A program made the translations under genes and the position numbers. Source: Acidobacteriota bacterium (GTDB lineage Bacteria; Acidobacteriota; UBA6911; JACQSX01). Taken from it: DNA of 43,245 nucleotides. Positions 4,956 through 40,852 of the stretch are shown here, one piece after another (positions within the stretch are counted from its first letter, which is position 1; the number at the start of each line of letters is the position of its first letter). Location of the stretch: positions 1 to 43,245 of the forward strand of contig DASXQR010000062.1 of the NCBI GenBank assembly GCA_036507075.1, given 5' to 3'. The notes beneath the pieces were generated by a model that searched no databases, was not told the origin of the DNA, and worked only from the letters and a program-made list of their open reading frames with translations.

Positions 4956-5312
4956 ATGGCTAAAACACTTGCCTGGATTTTCGGAGTTGTTTTCCTGTTG
5001 GTGGCAATCCTCGGCTTCAGAATGGGGGAAGGCATGCTGCTGGGTTACTTTGCGGTCAATCAGATGCACAACCTGGTCCATCTACTGTCTGGCATAGCCG
5101 CCATCGGCGCGGCTCTGGCCGGCGAGCGGTACGCCCGCATGTACTTCCAGATTTTCGGCGTCGTGTACCTGCTGGTGACCATCATTGGATTTGCCACGGG
5201 AAACTTGCTCGGCATGACGCTTAACATGGCAGACAATATTCTCCATCTGGCCATTGCAGCCGTCGCGCTGATTGTCGGATTCGTAGGCCATAGGGCCCCG
5301 GCCGCCGCATAA
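4956..5312 (+). CDS. DUF4383-like small membrane protein
   Basis: Four hydrophobic segments, HNLVHLLSG and DNILHL motifs; AGGAGG RBS. Confidence 0.75.
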   Translation: MAKTLAWIFGVVFLLVAILGFRMGEGMLLGYFAVNQMHNLVHLLSGIAAIGAALAGERYARMYFQIFGVVYLLVTIIGFATGNLLGMTLNMADNILHLAIAAVALIVGFVGHRAPAAA

Positions 5313-5478
5313 GCCCACTCCAAAACTGCAGGAACTAGCCGCCGATTTACGCGGACAACGCTAATCCGTGTTTTCCGGGTAGATCAGCGGCCAATTCTTT
5401 TATTCCTTGCTCAACCAAGCTCAACTCTGAGAGATTATATGTAATTACCTCAGTGGAGAAAGCAAGTGGAGGATTTTT

Positions 5479-6060
5479 ATGAAACAGAAAGTCGCTGCGG
5501 CGGCTTTGCTGGGAATACTGACGACTCCTTTTTTGATCGGGCAGGAGAGAAACCGCCAATCTCATGATCGCCGAAACTCCGGCGAAATCTTCCGATTTTT
5601 CGACCATCCCGCGTTCGGCTCGAATTTCCTCTTTGGGCCCCGAATCCGGGCTTTTCCCATCCTACACGTTCCCCGAGAATGGCTGGCGTTTTCGTTTGCA
5701 GAGCATTTCGTATGGGGCAATCATCGACCCACGCGCGAAAGTGCGGGCGACCATTTTTTGCTGTTCAGGGGATATCCTGATGTCTATTATGCGGGCGCAT
5801 ACGGAGCGGAAACGACCGGTTCTTCCAGTTACGCTAGCCAGCCTTTCGTCGAAGAATGGAAAGGACGCGAGCCGATCATGAAGGGGCCGGCACCAGACTT
5901 GACGCAGTCGACACTTCTGGCAGAAGGAATGCAGGAGGAGGAGGTTGTCAAACGTCTGGGATCCCCGCTCCAGCGGATTCAACTGGGAGAGCGGCAGGTC
6001 TGGAAATACTCCGGCTTTTCACTTTTATTTGAAAGCGGCCTGCTCAAAGAAATCCGCTGA
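5479..6060 (+). CDS. Hypothetical secreted protein with C-terminal SmpA/BamE-like small domain
   Basis: GGAGG RBS, signal-peptide-like start, C-terminal GMQEEEVVKRLGSP...WKY...LLFESGLL. Confidence 0.65.
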   Translation: MKQKVAAAALLGILTTPFLIGQERNRQSHDRRNSGEIFRFFDHPAFGSNFLFGPRIRAFPILHVPREWLAFSFAEHFVWGNHRPTRESAGDHFLLFRGYPDVYYAGAYGAETTGSSSYASQPFVEEWKGREPIMKGPAPDLTQSTLLAEGMQEEEVVKRLGSPLQRIQLGERQVWKYSGFSLLFESGLLKEIR

Positions 6061-8505: not shown

Positions 8506-10647
8506 ATGAAGAATCTCCAACACGCTCTGCCTTTCCTGATTGTCTTCCGTCTCATGCCTTTCCTCCACGCCGACGCTCTGTCCTGCGATATGACTGGCTA
8601 CAGCCCGCAGGCGGGGTTGGCGGCGTCAAGGGGTGAAAACACTCTGACGGTCACCTGGCAGGGGGAGCCGGGCACGCAGCTTCGCGCACAATTTGGCGTG
8701 CAATCGGGAAGTCCCGTGATCGCCACACTGTCGGTACAGAAGGCAAAAGCCGCCTGGCGCACGCTCGGCCGGAATCTGCAGCCGGAGTTTGGTGTTACCA
8801 CCGGCGTGCGGCGTTCCGGGCACGACCTGCCGGATGAAAAACGATGGGATGTTTACTGGGATGCGCCGCTCAGCATCCCGGGTGCTCCCACTGGAAATCC
8901 CAATCTTCCGCGGAAGCCGGAAGAGGTGCGGCGCTTCACAGCCTCTTACCACGCCACCGAATGCCGGGTGAAAACCGAAGGCGCGCGCCTGGAAATTCTC
9001 TTTAGCGGCGTCTCCATGGGCGTCTTCGCGGGAGATCTTCAATTCACGATTTATCGGGGAACGAACCTGATGCGAATGGAAGTGATTGCCAAAACGGAAG
9101 AGCCCTCGGTCGCCTACAAGTACTACGGAGGCCTGAAAGGATTTTCCACCGATATTTTCGATCGTGTAGAGTGGCGCGACACGGGAGGAAATGCGCAGCA
9201 GGTTCGCTTCGGCGGCGCGGCCAACAGCGATCCCGTTCCGTTGCGGGCGCGAAATCGGATTGCAATATTGTCGGGGCCAAACGGGTCGCTTGCGTTCTTT
9301 CCTCCGCCTCATCAGTTTTTCTTCGCGCGCCAGCTCGAAATCAATCTCGGTTTTGTCTGGTACCGCAAAGAAGCTGAGACAACGTTTTCGGCCGGGATTC
9401 GCCACGGTGAAAGCCATGAGGGCTACAACCCGGCGTGGATCCAGCAGGTGTTCGCGCTGTACAACGCCCCTCCCGGAACCTGGCAGCGCATGGCGGTTTA
9501 TTTTTATCCGAGTGCCGAGACATCGGATGCCTGCCGTGAATCTGCGCTCGCTTTTACGCATGGCGACAGGTTCAAACCCCTTCCCGGGTATAAGACTGTG
9601 GCGACTCACTTCCACACGGCATTCACGCAGGAGCTCATGGATTCAAAAAGCCTGGATACACAGCCGGGTTGGATTCCAAGCATGCGATCGCTGGGAGTGA
9701 ATATCGCGTTCATCTGCGACTTCCACGGCGACGGGCATCCGCGCGACCCGGGACCGGTCCGCCTCAGGGAACTCGAAAATTATTTTGCCGCCTGCCGCCG
9801 CCATTCCGATCGCGAGTTTCTGATTGTTCCCGGCGAAGAGCCGAATGAATACTTCGGGGGGCATTACAATCTTCTTTTTCCGAGGCCGGTCTACTGGACG
9901 CACGTGCGCCAGCCGGGTCAGCCGTTGGCGGAAAATGATCCGAAGCTGGGGACTGTTTACCACGCCGGAAGCACCGGCGACCTGCTTGAAATCCTCAAGA
10001 GAGAAAACGGGCTTGTGTGGCAAACGCATCCGCGCACCAAAGGGTCCACTTTTTACCCGGACCGGATCCGCGACAAAGATTATTTTTTGAGCGATCACTG
10101 GCTGGGCGCTGCGTTTAAGGCTCTGCCGGTTGACTTGTCGCAGAAACGGCTTTGCGAAGAACGCTGCTTCGGCACACTGGATGACATGAATAACTGGAAC
10201 GGCCGCAAATATCTTGTCGCCGAAGTGGACACCTACAAGAAATTCCCCGATTACGACCTGTACGGCGACTTCAACATTAACTATGTGAAGCTGGATCGCC
10301 TGCCGGACTTCAACGACTGGGGCGCGCTGGCCCGCGCTTTGCGGGCGGGAGATTTCTTTGTCTCGACGGGCGAAGTGCTGATTCGTAAATTTTCGCTGCA
10401 AGGAACCGGCCCAAAGCGAACTCTCAACGCCGATCTGGAATGGACTTTTCCGCTCGATTTTGTGGAAATGGTCTGGAGCGACGGGCAAAAAGTCGAGCGA
10501 CAGATAATTTCCACGACCGCTTATGCTCCTTTCGGCTCGCACCTGTTTCAAATTCCCTTTGATACGGCCGGCAAGAAATGGATTCGCTTTGCGGCCTGGG
10601 ATTCTGCGGGCAATGGAGCATTTACTCAGCCGGTGCACCTGAAGTAG
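8506..10647 (+). CDS. Secreted protein with C-terminal PHP-like metallohydrolase domain
   Basis: Signal peptide; THFHT, CDFH, GEE, GGHY, QTHP metal-ligand pattern; 713 aa open frame. Confidence 0.75.
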   Translation: MKNLQHALPFLIVFRLMPFLHADALSCDMTGYSPQAGLAASRGENTLTVTWQGEPGTQLRAQFGVQSGSPVIATLSVQKAKAAWRTLGRNLQPEFGVTTGVRRSGHDLPDEKRWDVYWDAPLSIPGAPTGNPNLPRKPEEVRRFTASYHATECRVKTEGARLEILFSGVSMGVFAGDLQFTIYRGTNLMRMEVIAKTEEPSVAYKYYGGLKGFSTDIFDRVEWRDTGGNAQQVRFGGAANSDPVPLRARNRIAILSGPNGSLAFFPPPHQFFFARQLEINLGFVWYRKEAETTFSAGIRHGESHEGYNPAWIQQVFALYNAPPGTWQRMAVYFYPSAETSDACRESALAFTHGDRFKPLPGYKTVATHFHTAFTQELMDSKSLDTQPGWIPSMRSLGVNIAFICDFHGDGHPRDPGPVRLRELENYFAACRRHSDREFLIVPGEEPNEYFGGHYNLLFPRPVYWTHVRQPGQPLAENDPKLGTVYHAGSTGDLLEILKRENGLVWQTHPRTKGSTFYPDRIRDKDYFLSDHWLGAAFKALPVDLSQKRLCEERCFGTLDDMNNWNGRKYLVAEVDTYKKFPDYDLYGDFNINYVKLDRLPDFNDWGALARALRAGDFFVSTGEVLIRKFSLQGTGPKRTLNADLEWTFPLDFVEMVWSDGQKVERQIISTTAYAPFGSHLFQIPFDTAGKKWIRFAAWDSAGNGAFTQPVHLK

Positions 10648-25464: not shown

Positions 25465-26283
25465 ATGTGCAAACCAAAGTTGTTCATGATTACCGCATTT
25501 CTGTTGCTGTTGCCTGCCGCGGTGTGCGGCCAGACCCAGGAATGGGTATTTCCGGTTGTCGTAACCGGTGTGATTGATAAACCGCTTCATTTTCGAACCA
25601 CTTTTAATATCCTGAATCTTTCTGCAGCCAATGCGGCCGGTGTCATCGAGGTATACGACAACAAGGGCGTTGTTCGCCCCGGTTTCTTTTGCACTCCGGT
25701 GGTTGTCTCCCCCTATCGGGTGTCGCTGGCATCAGGAGGCTTGTTTCATCAGGCGGGAACGACTGATGTCGGCCTTTTCGATGGTTGGGCCCGCTTGACG
25801 GTTGAAGGGGACGTCCCTGTGCAGTCCAGTGCAGAAATTGTTTTGAGCAAAGGGGAGCCAAAGCCGTGTCTTCTGATTTGCAGCGGGCCTTCAACGGAGG
25901 TGGTCAGCAGCGCTCAAGTGCATGCCGTGCGGCCCTCCAGGGAATTTCGCGCTCCCGCCACCATTACCGAGACGCGAGAGAGCGCTTACGCCATCGTCAA
26001 TCCTTCCGCTACGGAAACAGCCAAAGTCACCCTGCAGGCGCTCAAGTCCAACGGCGATCCGTTCGACGGCAATACTTACACCATTCCTCCCCGCGGGCGG
26101 CTGAGCAAGTTTGTCTGGGAATTACTGCTGTTGAACAAGGTTTTCATTGTCGCTCCGGTCCGGCCCACTGACTTTCATGGATCGGTGAAAATCACAAGCG
26201 ATATTCCAATCGCCGTCGGCGGCCTGCATGTGCTGTTTCCCGAAGGCAAGCTGGTGAATCTGGCGATCAGCTCGACGCCGTGA
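25465..26283 (+). CDS. Secreted hypothetical protein, two beta-rich repeat domains
   Basis: Signal peptide; FP...T.FNILN...G...GW and AIVNP...GSVKITSDIPI pattern shared with the next gene. Confidence 0.75.
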   Translation: MCKPKLFMITAFLLLLPAAVCGQTQEWVFPVVVTGVIDKPLHFRTTFNILNLSAANAAGVIEVYDNKGVVRPGFFCTPVVVSPYRVSLASGGLFHQAGTTDVGLFDGWARLTVEGDVPVQSSAEIVLSKGEPKPCLLICSGPSTEVVSSAQVHAVRPSREFRAPATITETRESAYAIVNPSATETAKVTLQALKSNGDPFDGNTYTIPPRGRLSKFVWELLLLNKVFIVAPVRPTDFHGSVKITSDIPIAVGGLHVLFPEGKLVNLAISSTP

Positions 26284-32118: not shown

Positions 32119-32129
32119 AGCTCGCTCCC

Positions 32130-32158
32130 CTTTGTGTCCTTCGTGTCTTTGTGGTGAA
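32130..32158. repeat. Lone right arm of a family A-type element
   Basis: ctttgtgtccttcgtgtctttgtggtgaa between convergent genes. Confidence 0.7.
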
Positions 32159-32163
32159 AGGTA

Positions 32164-32931
32164 CTAGGCGTGAGAGCCGTTCGCCTGGCTCATGCGGTAC
32201 AGATTGACTCGTCGAGCGTAGTAGTTGGCGAGGGCCACGGGAATAACCGCGGCGATGATCAGGTAATTAGCGGGACTGAAGAAGGCAAAAATGATGGCCG
32301 CGGTCGATTCGTTCAGAATGTTGGCGGCCGAAAGCCAGGCGAAATTGCGGCTCCAGATCGTAAAGAACGGCCGGCCGAGCACCAGAGAGATTGCCAGCGC
32401 CACCATGGCCGTGTTGAGCGCGAAATAAAGCAGCCCGGCCACATTGACCAGCACGAGAAGTTTCAGGTTCAGCGCGATTTCCGAGGGATCGAGCGGGTAT
32501 GCTCGACCCATCATCCAGTAGAACACGCGCCCCACAACGTAGGTCGCCAGCGCCAGCTCGGCAACATTGAATAACTGCTTGTACGCCCGTTTGACGCGGA
32601 CTCTTAAGCTGCTGGCGATTCCTTCCAAGCCCGCCAGCGTCACGGCCACATGGAATCCGAAGAGAAGCAGCGCTGCGAAAACGAAAACGTCGCTCACCGA
32701 GATAGTCAGCGACTGGCCCTTGATCTTCATTAGAGGAACACGGACTGCCAGAACGCTTCCCACAACCGTGAAGGCCGCCAGGTAGAGCCACCGCACGTCT
32801 GTCACCTTCATCGTTTGATACGCGCTGAAGGCCAGCAGTGGCAACCCCGCCGCGATTACGATGCCGATGTAACCTTTGGCCGCCGCGGAGAGCGTCTGAT
32901 TGTTTGCCGTGTTACTAGAACCTTGAGACAA
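32164..32931 (-). CDS. Polytopic membrane protein resembling the N-terminal membrane sensor domain of HD-GYP/GGDEF proteins, no output domain
   Basis: About 7-8 TM segments; TISVSDVFVFAALLLFG, LFNVA, YFALNT motifs; TTG start after GAGG; 37 bp downstream of the S8 gene. Confidence 0.65.
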   Translation of the reverse strand: MSQGSSNTANNQTLSAAAKGYIGIVIAAGLPLLAFSAYQTMKVTDVRWLYLAAFTVVGSVLAVRVPLMKIKGQSLTISVSDVFVFAALLLFGFHVAVTLAGLEGIASSLRVRVKRAYKQLFNVAELALATYVVGRVFYWMMGRAYPLDPSEIALNLKLLVLVNVAGLLYFALNTAMVALAISLVLGRPFFTIWSRNFAWLSAANILNESTAAIIFAFFSPANYLIIAAVIPVALANYYARRVNLYRMSQANGSHA

Positions 32932-32968
32932 GATACCCTCTGATTTTAGTTAATCAGACCTTGGAAAG

Positions 32969-34804
32969 TTACCGCGGGTCCCCTGGGAATGAATCCGTCC
33001 AGATCACCCCGTCGAGGGGATCGAGGGGATCCCCAGCCCCTACGTCATCTGCCCAGATGACGCTGTCAGACCAGATGACACCATCGTCGCCACTGGGGGT
33101 GTCGTTCACCCAGAGAATTCCATCAGACCAGATCACGCCGTCGTCGCCAACGATGATGCCGTCATCCGACCAGAGTACGTCATCAGCCCAGACGACGCTG
33201 GTGGTGGAAAGGAATCCCTTGGTCCAATTCGTTCCGTCGGCCCAGACAATGGAGGTGCTCCACTGAACGCCGCTGCCCCATTTGCTGTTAACCGAAGCGT
33301 TGACCAGCGGGCTGAAGAAAGTCTTTTTGCCGCTGGAGAAAGCGCCGCCGGCCCAAACCTTTTCGCCGTCGATGTAGAGATAGGGAACGATGGTTCCGAT
33401 TTGAGTTTTGGATTTCGTGTCGAGCTGGCGGGCAAACTGTACCGACGTCAGCGCGTTAACCATTCCGTTGCCCTGCTCAAGCATGTGCAGGTTCTGCAGC
33501 TTGATCGCCGTGAGGCCGAGGATCAACTTCACCAGTTTCGGGTTGAGGCCCGAATTCGCCTGCAGCATCAACGCTACCGTTCCGGAAACATACGGGGTGG
33601 CCATGCTCGAACCGCTAAGGTTCAAATAGCCGTTACCCGCGATCAGATCGGGATGGAGCTGCGCAATCCGGCAGCCAGGCGACAGTAAAGAAACAATTCG
33701 GTTGCCCGGAGCAGAGATGTCGGGCTTGAACAAGTTGTCCAGATAGGTGGGGCCGCGCGAGCCATATGTGGTCGCGATATCGTCAGAGTGAGTAGCGGTG
33801 TCCCGAGTGTTGACCGGGTACACTGTAATCACCGCCGGGTCATTTCCGGGACTGTCGATGGCGCCCCAGATCTTCGCATGCGTCGCATCTTTTCCAAGGT
33901 TGCCGGAGGAAGCGATTACCGTTACACCGGCCGCGATCAATCTTTCAACGGCCTGGCAAACCGGATCGTTGCGATAGCCTTCAATCGGGGAATGACCCAG
34001 AGAGAAATTCGCTACGCGGACATTGTAAACATTCTTGTTCTGGACCACCCAGTCGATGGCATTGATCAAACTGCTGGACGTTCCCCCGCCCAAATCATCG
34101 ATCACCTTTACATCGAGGAGCCTGACGTTGCTGGCCACGCCGCGATTCAAACCGCCCGACACTGTACCGTTGCCGCCAATAATTCCGGCGACATGCGTTC
34201 CATGGCCATAGCCATCAATGTTGCTTGCAACCACGACAGGGACGCCTGAGGTCGCATCAACAGCACCCACAATCCTGCCGGCCAGATCCGGATGCGGATA
34301 AATCCCGGAATCAAACACGGCCACCGTTACACCCTGGCCCGTAAAGCCCTGGCTGTTTGCCTGGTCAGCGCCAATAGTAGTCAGTGAAACGTTCCGGGGA
34401 GGAGCCACCAGATCGGTTACTCCACCCAGTTGGTGCGGATTCAGCGCGGCGTCGATTGTGACGTACCGGACATTCTTGTCCTTCAGCAGATTCTTGATTT
34501 TTGCGCCGTTGTGCTTGGAGGCATACCCGTTGATGGAAGGCAACTTCTTTGCCTTGCTCGGGATGGCCTTATCTTTATCCTGCACGGTCGGGTAATACTG
34601 GACGATAACGGGAATATCTTTGGTATTTAAGAGAGCAGGACCGTAATAAATGATGAGCTGCCGTAAAACCGGCGAAATCTTATAAGAAAACTCGTCCAGC
34701 GGATCCTTATCGGCGAGTACCGGAATCGCCAGGGACCAGAACGTGAGCATCAGGATCACGCTGATCGTCAGTTTTCTTCGATTTATAACCCAATTCGTTC
34801 GCAT
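32969..34804 (-). CDS. Secreted S8 (subtilisin-like) serine peptidase with Trp/Asp-rich repeat tail
   Basis: Signal peptide, prodomain, triad VAVFDSG / GHGTHVAG / SGSSMATP, KPDISAPG; tail repeats such as GVIWSD and SVIWAD. Confidence 0.92.
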   Translation of the reverse strand: MRTNWVINRRKLTISVILMLTFWSLAIPVLADKDPLDEFSYKISPVLRQLIIYYGPALLNTKDIPVIVQYYPTVQDKDKAIPSKAKKLPSINGYASKHNGAKIKNLLKDKNVRYVTIDAALNPHQLGGVTDLVAPPRNVSLTTIGADQANSQGFTGQGVTVAVFDSGIYPHPDLAGRIVGAVDATSGVPVVVASNIDGYGHGTHVAGIIGGNGTVSGGLNRGVASNVRLLDVKVIDDLGGGTSSSLINAIDWVVQNKNVYNVRVANFSLGHSPIEGYRNDPVCQAVERLIAAGVTVIASSGNLGKDATHAKIWGAIDSPGNDPAVITVYPVNTRDTATHSDDIATTYGSRGPTYLDNLFKPDISAPGNRIVSLLSPGCRIAQLHPDLIAGNGYLNLSGSSMATPYVSGTVALMLQANSGLNPKLVKLILGLTAIKLQNLHMLEQGNGMVNALTSVQFARQLDTKSKTQIGTIVPYLYIDGEKVWAGGAFSSGKKTFFSPLVNASVNSKWGSGVQWSTSIVWADGTNWTKGFLSTTSVVWADDVLWSDDGIIVGDDGVIWSDGILWVNDTPSGDDGVIWSDSVIWADDVGAGDPLDPLDGVIWTDSFPGDPR

Positions 34805-34819
34805 TGCGGGCTGTATCAG

Positions 34820-34834
34820 GCAAGACCCATGCCA
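34820..34834 (-). promoter_or_regulatory. Sigma54 (-24/-12) promoter of the S8 gene
   Basis: Minus strand TGGCATGGGTCTTGC: GG-N10-GC, one mismatch from TGGCAC-N5-TTGC; AT-rich tract upstream. Confidence 0.7.
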
Positions 34835-35016
34835 CTTCCCCTACCCGACCGGTAAAAGCAGCCAGAAAACCCCTTAATATATGAAAACAAAACTGTTAAA
34901 GTTTGAGGGTCGAGGGTCTGAAAGGGGGGATGGAAAGAAGTGCGGTTAAAAAAGCGCCACAAATATGGCGAACACTGACGGATCCCTGTCGGATTGAAAG
35001 TTTTGCAGCGAAAACC

Positions 35017-40327: not shown

Positions 40328-40852
40328 TTACGCGACGTCAAAAGCATCTTCCGCTTCCAAGGCATCTTCATCGGCGGGAGTGCTGTCTTTTTCCAATGCT
40401 TTGATATCCGCTTCGGAGTAGGAGCGTGTCTTTCGGTTGTACAGGCGGCCGTTCTTGGACTTCCGAATCAAGTACAGATCGTCCCAGCATTTCTGACAAC
40501 GGTCCAGGTGGTACAGGATGTCGAGCTTTTCGTCCAATTCCATCCGACCTTCTGCAAAAGCGATCAACTTGCGCCTGCTGCAACCATTCAATGCGGCGCG
40601 GGAACGGAAAGCTTTCTTCCTGCTTTGAATTCCGACAGGGGGCTTCATCGAGACCCTGGTTTTTTCTTTCGCTTTTTTGCCGGAAGCCTTTCTGGCACGA
40701 GCCTTGCTTAACCGCGGAGAGGTTCTGGCAGAGGTTCGGGAATATGCCTTCCGCGAGGATCGTGCTTTTACAATACGGGTTTTCCTCGCCGCCTTCTTGC
40801 GGAGCTTGGCGGCTTTCGCTCCTGCTCTCCTCGGTTTTCGAGCAGTTTTCAT
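40328..40852 (-). CDS. Basic histone-like N-terminus + zf-HC2 (anti-sigma type) zinc motif + acidic tail
   Basis: ~85 aa K/R/A/S-rich region; C...HLDRCQKC; acidic C-terminus; purine-rich RBS region and downstream terminator. Confidence 0.7.
   Translation of the reverse strand: MKTARKPRRAGAKAAKLRKKAARKTRIVKARSSRKAYSRTSARTSPRLSKARARKASGKKAKEKTRVSMKPPVGIQSRKKAFRSRAALNGCSRRKLIAFAEGRMELDEKLDILYHLDRCQKCWDDLYLIRKSKNGRLYNRKTRSYSEADIKALEKDSTPADEDALEAEDAFDVA

Follow-up and report, generated by a model that had tools for sequence, protein, structure and literature searches.

The window analysed here, positions 1 to 43,245 of contig DASXQR010000062.1 of an Acidobacteriota bacterium (assembly GCA_036507075.1), carries on its minus strand a two-gene unit in which a subtilase with a Trp-repeat tail is followed by a membrane protein of the MASE9 family. 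An original prediction made from the sequence had proposed a sigma54-type promoter, a secreted S8 protease ending in about 11 Trp-centred repeats, a 37-bp gap and a membrane protein, and this arrangement was confirmed in the sequence. A -24/-12 promoter element (GG-N10-GC; 34820..34834) precedes the protease gene (32969..34804), which is followed by the intergenic gap (32932..32968) and the MASE9 gene (32164..32931); these features, like those of the protease gene and its upstream region given below, lie on the minus strand. The gap holds a Shine-Dalgarno-like purine run before the TTG start of the MASE9 gene and no short open reading frame (micro-ORF), its coding strand being without ATG or GTG. 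Contigs of two sequencing runs, X1, which may have supplied this DNA, and X2, spanned the tail, the gap and the MASE9 stop without an indel; the X2 contigs had two changes in the tail, both synonymous, and neither run differed from the window at the MASE9 stop. After that stop lies a short palindromic element (32128-32160) whose depth in three metagenome runs was raised about 50-fold and which showed numerous loose ends there, in the manner of a dispersed repeat.

The protease gene encodes 611 amino acids (aa) comprising a signal peptide, a propeptide, a catalytic domain, a small folded post-catalytic part and the Trp-repeat tail. Pfam Peptidase_S8 (PF00082) matched aa 156-439 (33488..34339) with 139.5 bits against a cut-off of 21.8 (E 1.9e-40), and the catalytic residues D165, H201 and S400 as well as the oxyanion residue N302 were invariant in an 83-row alignment. 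By domain score, triad and oxyanion Asn the protein is a member of peptidase family S8, and pro-subtilisins were the best structural matches to its model; no NCBIfam model scored above its cut-off for this protein or for the MASE9 protein. A predicted Sec signal peptide (aa 1-31; 34712..34804), called by eye from the sequence rather than by a predictor, shows a basic n-region, a hydrophobic core and a small-residue cleavage site; the model has a helix at aa 2-26, and 102 of 117 Trp-tail relatives passed the hydrophobic-stretch threshold used as a signal-peptide check. Signal peptide, propeptide and Asp-His-Ser triad are shared with pro-subtilisins and with the S8A proteases labelled AprX, from which the window's protease differs in its C-terminal Trp-repeat tail and its fixed linkage to MASE9.

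The Trp-repeat region (aa 506-604; 32993..33289) has 11 Trp residues between aa 509 and 602, that is, within the last 112 residues of the protein. About 8 of these fit the pattern hydrophobic-hydrophobic-W-[S/T/A/V]-[D/N], their spacing is irregular (6, 6, 6, 12, 6, 14, 6, 13, 6 and 18 residues), and the segment from aa 540 to 611 is acidic (25% D/E, one K/R). In the model, the first Trp units sit in the folded post-catalytic part, and only aa 548-605 have a predicted local distance difference test score (pLDDT) below 50, with almost no secondary structure. A tail of this kind might be structural, serving as a surface anchor, a beta-solenoid or amyloid-like assembly or a substrate-binding arm, with MASE9 sensing some other cue, such as digestion products, and the two genes linked only through a c-di-GMP/sigma54 lifestyle regulon. 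Perfect 6-residue periods in the tails of many relatives speak for such a structure, as do the hexapeptide-like repeats of loci L219 and L258, in which Ile or Val replaces Trp. The window's own repeats, however, are irregular and broken by Pro/Asp/Gly spacers, and they were not modelled as a solenoid; a check for a hexapeptide beta-helix found no Pfam match for the tail, irregular spacing and a pLDDT below 50, a low confidence that is compatible with a fold formed on assembly. Weighing also the evidence on micro-ORFs given below, we regard a structural tail as distinctly improbable.

According to the original prediction, the membrane domain would usually be found at the head of HD-GYP/GGDEF or kinase proteins. 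Indeed, the 255-aa protein is a MASE9 domain (PF20972; 36.4 bits against a cut-off of 24.3) that fills the protein from end to end, with eight predicted membrane helices and conserved aromatic and Asn/Ser positions; its Atlas neighbours are MASE9 clusters, whose taxa, like the names of homologues, point to Acidobacteriota, and in other proteins MASE9 is fused to just such output domains. The preprint that defines the family describes fusions to HD-GYP, GAF, GGDEF and EAL and names no ligand in its available text, and its main text has neither "protease" nor "peptidase" (10.1101/2021.11.05.467447). The window's member is stand-alone rather than fused: Pfam detected no output domain or any other domain in it, and the ORF ends 4 residues past MASE9. 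A frameshift or assembly error that severed an output domain was considered and rejected on the X1 and X2 contigs, on a tree in which stand-alone forms arose repeatedly, and on purifying selection (pN 0.18-0.44, pS 0.66-0.79 among stand-alone copies). In that quick tree, whose kinase and HD-GYP labels come from rough motif matching, the stand-alone forms called for 10 changes, at least 7 of them forced, and the window's protein fell into a clade beside MASE9 kinases of the type encoded on contig C133 of the same genome (SH-aLRT 95-98). The stand-alone copies keep F121, N122, N173, S78 and W193 and are without the helix-6 motif W199/Y204/G207 and the C-terminal linker. On this sequence evidence, the window's MASE9 is a conserved truncated sister of the MASE9 kinase. 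Because it has no output domain, it is unable to read out a signal alone; the dedicated sensor of the original prediction is better seen as a likely decoy.

The MASE9 model (pLDDT 89.8) shows an energy-coupling factor (ECF) S-component fold to which a helix has been added at either end. Of 48,161 chains compared with it, the 15 best were all S-component-type ligand binders (Z 14.2-8.4), led by 4m5c (Z 14.2, root mean square deviation 3.4 over 186 residues), and Foldseek also ranked the S-component family first, with an E value of only 0.025. A six-helix S-component fold is thus predicted for MASE9. An S-component of an ECF transporter would be expected to expose loops L1, L3 and L5 and the pocket to the outside; in MASE9, K/R counts place these loops inside, with 1.9, 3.4 and 2.4 K/R in L1, L3 and L5, respectively, against 0.07-0.9 in the alternate loops (114 sequences). 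The same parity is demanded by the extra C-terminal helix, which leads into cytoplasmic enzymes. Charge bias and helix parity predict a cytoplasm-facing pocket, which the conserved S78, N122, N173 and W193 line. Consequently, external peptides would need import, and simple outside-in quorum sensing, as first proposed, does not fit. No EcfT or EcfA genes were found among the annotated ORFs of the window, to which the search was confined. A complex prediction for the stand-alone MASE9 with tail residues 553-590 scored 0.01; it was run without folded controls and is not used as evidence.

To establish how general the pairing of Trp-tail proteases with MASE9 is, counts were made in several sets, in none of which are kin independent. 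Among 49 MASE9-anchored regions from 31 other genomes of the phylum, 24 held an S8 gene, and 23 of these had a visible Trp tail. Starting instead from a DNA pattern for four Trp units, with 4 of 64 GTDB parts scanned, we obtained 122 loci, 80 of them with flanks; MASE9 was present at 23 of the 35 that qualified (complete Trp-tail S8 gene and at least 1.2 kb downstream), at 19 within 1 kb on the same strand. In a metagenome set, 38 of 79 loci qualified, and 25 of these had MASE9, 23 of them within 1 kb on the same strand. In seven self-chosen MASE9-positive genomes, 60 of 68 S8 matches were fetched and 57 had enough flank; among the 42 Trp-tailed S8 genes, 21 had MASE9 as the next gene downstream and a further 9 had another S8 gene there, whereas MASE9 followed 1 of the 15 tail-less ones. 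The claim that W-repeat subtilases neighbour genes for this membrane domain was therefore borne out. The lone tail-less positive (L388; G241:C6) is an S8 ORF that runs into the C-terminal half of a MASE9, by deletion or as a true fusion.

At the level of whole genomes, MASE9 was present in 48 of 50 genomes of the class with the protease versus 43 of 87 without it. In a sample of the phylum, Pfam detected MASE9 in 16 of 25 repeat-positive genomes, and a more sensitive model added 4 of the other 9; among repeat-negative genomes the figure by Pfam alone was 16 of 176. MASE9 was also found in 2 of 5 non-acidobacterial genomes reached through pattern loci, and a plasmid collection gave no MASE9 match and only generic S8 matches and so yielded no example from a cultured, annotated organism. 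The linkage between Trp-tail subtilases and MASE9 is real but not exclusive. Large expansions were seen in genomes G241, G242 and G244; in G241, where tandem protease pairs are common, 25 S8 matches were counted, of which 18 had a Trp tail, together with 18 MASE9 matches. A gene for a GNAT acetyltransferase (Acetyltransf_3) adjoins the protease in L082, L213 and L217, and the end of a similar ORF lies between protease and MASE9 in L038.

The tail motif is also encoded apart from the protease. Micro-ORFs of 6-36 codons, with a ribosome-binding site and the motif at their end, were seen upstream of 16 of the 42 fused MASE9 genes located behind a protease and of none of the 29 stand-alone and none of the 43 protease-less fused MASE9 genes, and control windows gave 0 of 121 and 0 of 99, with a pattern that was set after seeing examples. 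When a pattern independent of the end was used, W stood one or two residues before the stop in 34 of 37 micro-ORFs. The micro-peptides resembled the neighbouring tail (6.25 versus 2.84+-0.66 when shuffled; 0 of 5000 shuffles, kin not being independent), and none carried a signal sequence. A genome-wide scan of the window's genome (G000) found a further Trp-motif micro-ORF between ftsL and ftsI in the division and cell wall (dcw) cluster (G000:C176, L291, about 5200-5330, minus strand). In three of four other genomes of the family (loci L316, L317 and L318), an 8-codon ORF overlaps the ftsL stop; in G000 the overlapping ORF, of 17 codons, begins with the motif and is followed by the 8-codon ORF. 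The ftsL-coupled motif ORF is thus kept in 4 of 5 family genomes, with varying third positions and all three stop codons in use, and only a 4-codon remnant is left in G206; none of 25 loci from beyond the family, one of them without upstream DNA, had such a motif ORF. Because the repeat unit occurs in free micro-ORFs as well, the unit itself rather than a fold is likely to be the functional entity; free one-unit ORFs of 6-10 aa would be unable to build the fold of a structural tail, yet they are conserved and resemble the neighbouring tail.

These micro-ORFs raise the possibility that MASE9 senses the motif only inside the cell, from division-operon micro-peptides and from the tails of unexported precursors, and so reports growth or secretion load, with the stand-alone MASE9 buffering precursor tails. 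The K/R-rich L1, L3 and L5 and the parity of the extra last helix would suit such a gauge, as would the lack of signal peptides on the micro-ORF products, the coupling of one micro-ORF to ftsL in the dcw cluster and the position of a paralogous protease locus (contig C110) downstream of ftsZ. It is harder to reconcile with a multi-copy tail on a protein that bears a signal peptide and with the absence of micro-ORFs before all 29 stand-alone MASE9 genes, and the topology on which it depends is itself a prediction. We consider this explanation unlikely.

The sigma54 element of the window is weak when taken alone, because 4 matches occur in the window versus 1.21 expected, and 4 of 100 shuffles reach 4. 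Recurrence adds to it: a sigma54 site also lies before both paralogous operons of the genome, and across genomes the motif preceded 26 of 156 Trp-tail S8 genes versus 3, 2 and 1 of 156 in spacing and strand controls. The genome encodes one RpoN and has 21 strong matches to sigma54 activators. Upstream of the -24 element lie two candidate enhancer (activator) sites, an imperfect 5-6-5 palindrome at 34976..34991 (about 157 bp upstream) and, 21 bp from it, a perfect one at 34955..34970 (about 136 bp upstream); the latter, as a hairpin with a T run, could alternatively be the intrinsic terminator of the upstream radical SAM gene. The corresponding motif YGNCR-N6-YGNCR, defined after the regions had been seen, occurred 15 times in 26 promoter regions versus 2.8+-1.7 (maximum 10) in 200 shuffles. 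This motif resembles the FleQ consensus GTCA-N6-TGAC, which the cited authors deem unreliable (PMC6120874). With its element, the genome's RpoN and activators and the candidate upstream sites, the window's site probably is a sigma54-dependent promoter; with just 16 bp separating the end of the -12 element from the ATG, the leader would measure only about 4 nucleotides. A perfect sigma54 match at 40693-40707 was set aside as it lies inside an ORF on the opposite strand (40328-40852). That ORF and those at 8506-10647, 5479-6060 and 25465-26283 gave no Pfam match at E 0.01.

Four genes for Trp-tail S8 proteases and six for MASE9 proteins are present in the genome as a whole, and a MASE9 gene lies directly downstream of all four Trp-tail proteases; four more distant S8 matches are on contigs without MASE9. 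Contig C210 repeats the layout of the window. On C133 the order is a MASE9-PAS-kinase-receiver gene, a sigma54 site, the protease, a stand-alone MASE9, a receiver-HD-GYP and a receiver-type sigma54 activator. On C110, two c-di-GMP-I riboswitches precede a protease, two tiny ORFs that have ribosome-binding sites and spell the tail motif, and a MASE9-HD-GYP-GAF-GGDEF gene; the tandem riboswitches are at L009:8479-8656 (minus strand), and this paralogous protease is just downstream of ftsA-ftsZ. The C133 order, with MASE9-kinase, protease and receiver-type sigma54 activator, recurs in four genomes of three families (G000, G205, G252 and G015), although the operons of G252 and G015 have the kinase and the activator but neither the stand-alone MASE9 nor the receiver-HD-GYP. 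The activators of these genomes are 61-70% identical to the C133 protein, whereas its closest paralogs in G000 reach at most 44%, and they are orthologous; they keep the phospho-acceptor Asp and rank near NtrC1 and FleQ among solved structures. The expectation that sigma54 sites and activators would lie near Trp-tail S8 genes thus held for the enriched sites and for the activator at the paralogous operon in four genomes, but none of the activators is in the window. Lacking kinase and activator, the window's operon would be driven in trans, and since its MASE9 is a truncated sister of the MASE9 kinase that flanks a paralogous operon with a sigma54 activator, it looks like a satellite of that circuit.

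Together, these results led us to a reading to which we give, tentatively, a nearly even chance, namely that the two-gene unit belongs, as a sigma54-induced satellite, to a peptide autoinduction loop: the tail is cut into signal peptides, full-length MASE9 proteins read these peptides and the stand-alone MASE9 acts as a decoy. The secreted protease would trim its own disordered tail after an acidic or polar residue, giving peptides that end in W-x-D like the free micro-peptides, and these would reach the cytoplasm-facing MASE9 pocket by Opp-type import or by partition into the membrane. As the gene context suggests, the MASE9-PAS-kinase of C133 would then phosphorylate the receiver-type sigma54 activator encoded there, and the phosphorylated activator would switch on the genome's three sigma54 protease operons, that of the window among them. 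The stand-alone MASE9, induced along with the protease and derived from the kinase sensor by duplication and truncation, would bind the same peptide or pair with the kinase and thereby set a threshold or shut the loop off.

Several observations weigh against this autoinduction loop. No S8 gene was visible in 25 of the 49 MASE9-anchored regions, and Trp-tail S8 loci without a nearby MASE9 numbered 12 of 35 in one set and 13 of 38 in the other; the occurrence of the tail without MASE9 also suits a structural tail. Three of the MASE9-less loci (L097, L114 and L137) adjoin Reg_prop/Y_Y_Y beta-propeller sensors, possibly a second receptor type, and other tailed proteases sit beside unrelated genes (72 of 125 neighbouring ORFs scanned). 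Only 26 of the 156 Trp-tail S8 genes have the sigma54 site, only 9 of 31 operons with a stand-alone MASE9 are preceded by the motif, and the window has neither an activator nor a kinase gene. There is no import gene at the locus, and three family-5 solute-binding proteins are encoded elsewhere in the genome. The micro-peptides differ systematically from the tails, often having H or Y before the W, so that the two may not be the same ligand. Finally, covariation between tail motif and partner MASE9, which the original prediction would have expected, was absent once protease relatedness had been removed (partial r -0.01 for 70 pairs and -0.15 for 32 stand-alone pairs). This lack of covariation beyond ancestry is more in keeping with one signal shared broadly than with private lock-and-key pairs; a structural tail predicts the same. 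As a separate observation, several tails of the L097/L114/L137 branch share the same short acidic ending motif.

The role of the stand-alone MASE9 might also be positive rather than inhibitory, either as a co-receptor for MASE9 kinase or HD-GYP enzymes or as a solitary S-component-like carrier of the peptide across the membrane. Its S-component fold, with a transporter subunit as the best match, its co-transcription with the peptide source and its repeated origin would agree with this, and S-components move their ligands by toppling, according to the available text of PMC11109136. Toppling would probably be restrained by the helices at both ends, though, and the stand-alone forms derive from signalling proteins, not from transporters. 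Moreover, because the G252 and G015 operons have kinase and activator without a stand-alone copy, the loop does not need one. A positive role is, in our view, quite unlikely.

No paper on a Trp-tail protease-MASE9 module was found in the openly accessible literature, and the module was compared with described systems. In agr/Com-type loops, the precursor gene is controlled by a two-component system that senses its signal, maturation and export depend on AgrB or ComAB, and the regulator is of the LytTR type. Here, too, the precursor gene would be under a two-component system that likely senses the signal, but the annotated loci have no dedicated maturation or export protein, the regulator is a sigma54 activator rather than LytTR, and the peptides would be linear, acidic and Trp-containing. 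Parallels are also offered by the Rap-Phr/RRNPP systems of Bacillota, with which, as far as the available text of PMC11343458 describes them, the module would share a secreted multi-copy precursor of short signals, maturation by an extracellular protease and, if the MASE9 topology holds, a binding site reached from the cytoplasm. Unlike in RRNPP systems, the precursor would be the protease itself, the receptor an S-component-fold membrane protein and not a soluble tetratricopeptide repeat (TPR) protein, and the outputs a kinase/sigma54 branch and a c-di-GMP branch. With the 5TMR-LYT receptors BtsS and YpdA, MASE9 shares a six-helix S-component core placed as a sensor ahead of kinase or GGDEF domains; in these receptors and in ECF S-components the pocket lies close to the outer face and helix 6 extends into the cytoplasm, whereas MASE9 has an extra helix at its C-terminal end and K/R-rich L1, L3 and L5 and is predicted to be inverted (PMC11109136, whose available text does not mention MASE).

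A broader reading, which we regard as possible but on balance rather doubtful, would treat MASE9 as a vitamin-transporter fold turned upside down, which senses a single short Trp peptide of two origins, the protease tail, reporting neighbour density or protease activity, and 8-residue peptides from the cell-division operon, reporting the cell's own growth. The kinase/sigma54 and c-di-GMP branches would integrate the two, with the output-less copies serving as inducible threshold decoys. As judged from comparison of genomes, the module is real and conserved, a variant of peptide signalling that would be categorically new if the two-source, inward-facing reading holds; it would then represent a class of diderm peptide signalling unrelated to RRNPP or agr. 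Were the autoinduction loop to be correct, its design would be unusual in a protease that carries its own multi-copy signal, a receptor pocket that faces the cytoplasm and truncated receptors that arose repeatedly as likely decoys, and the 8-codon ORF between ftsL and ftsI would link the circuit to cell division. The orphan MASE9 sensor family would gain a concrete and cheaply synthesised candidate ligand, and a peptide signalling circuit would be recognised in the Acidobacteriota, an abundant and poorly cultured phylum.

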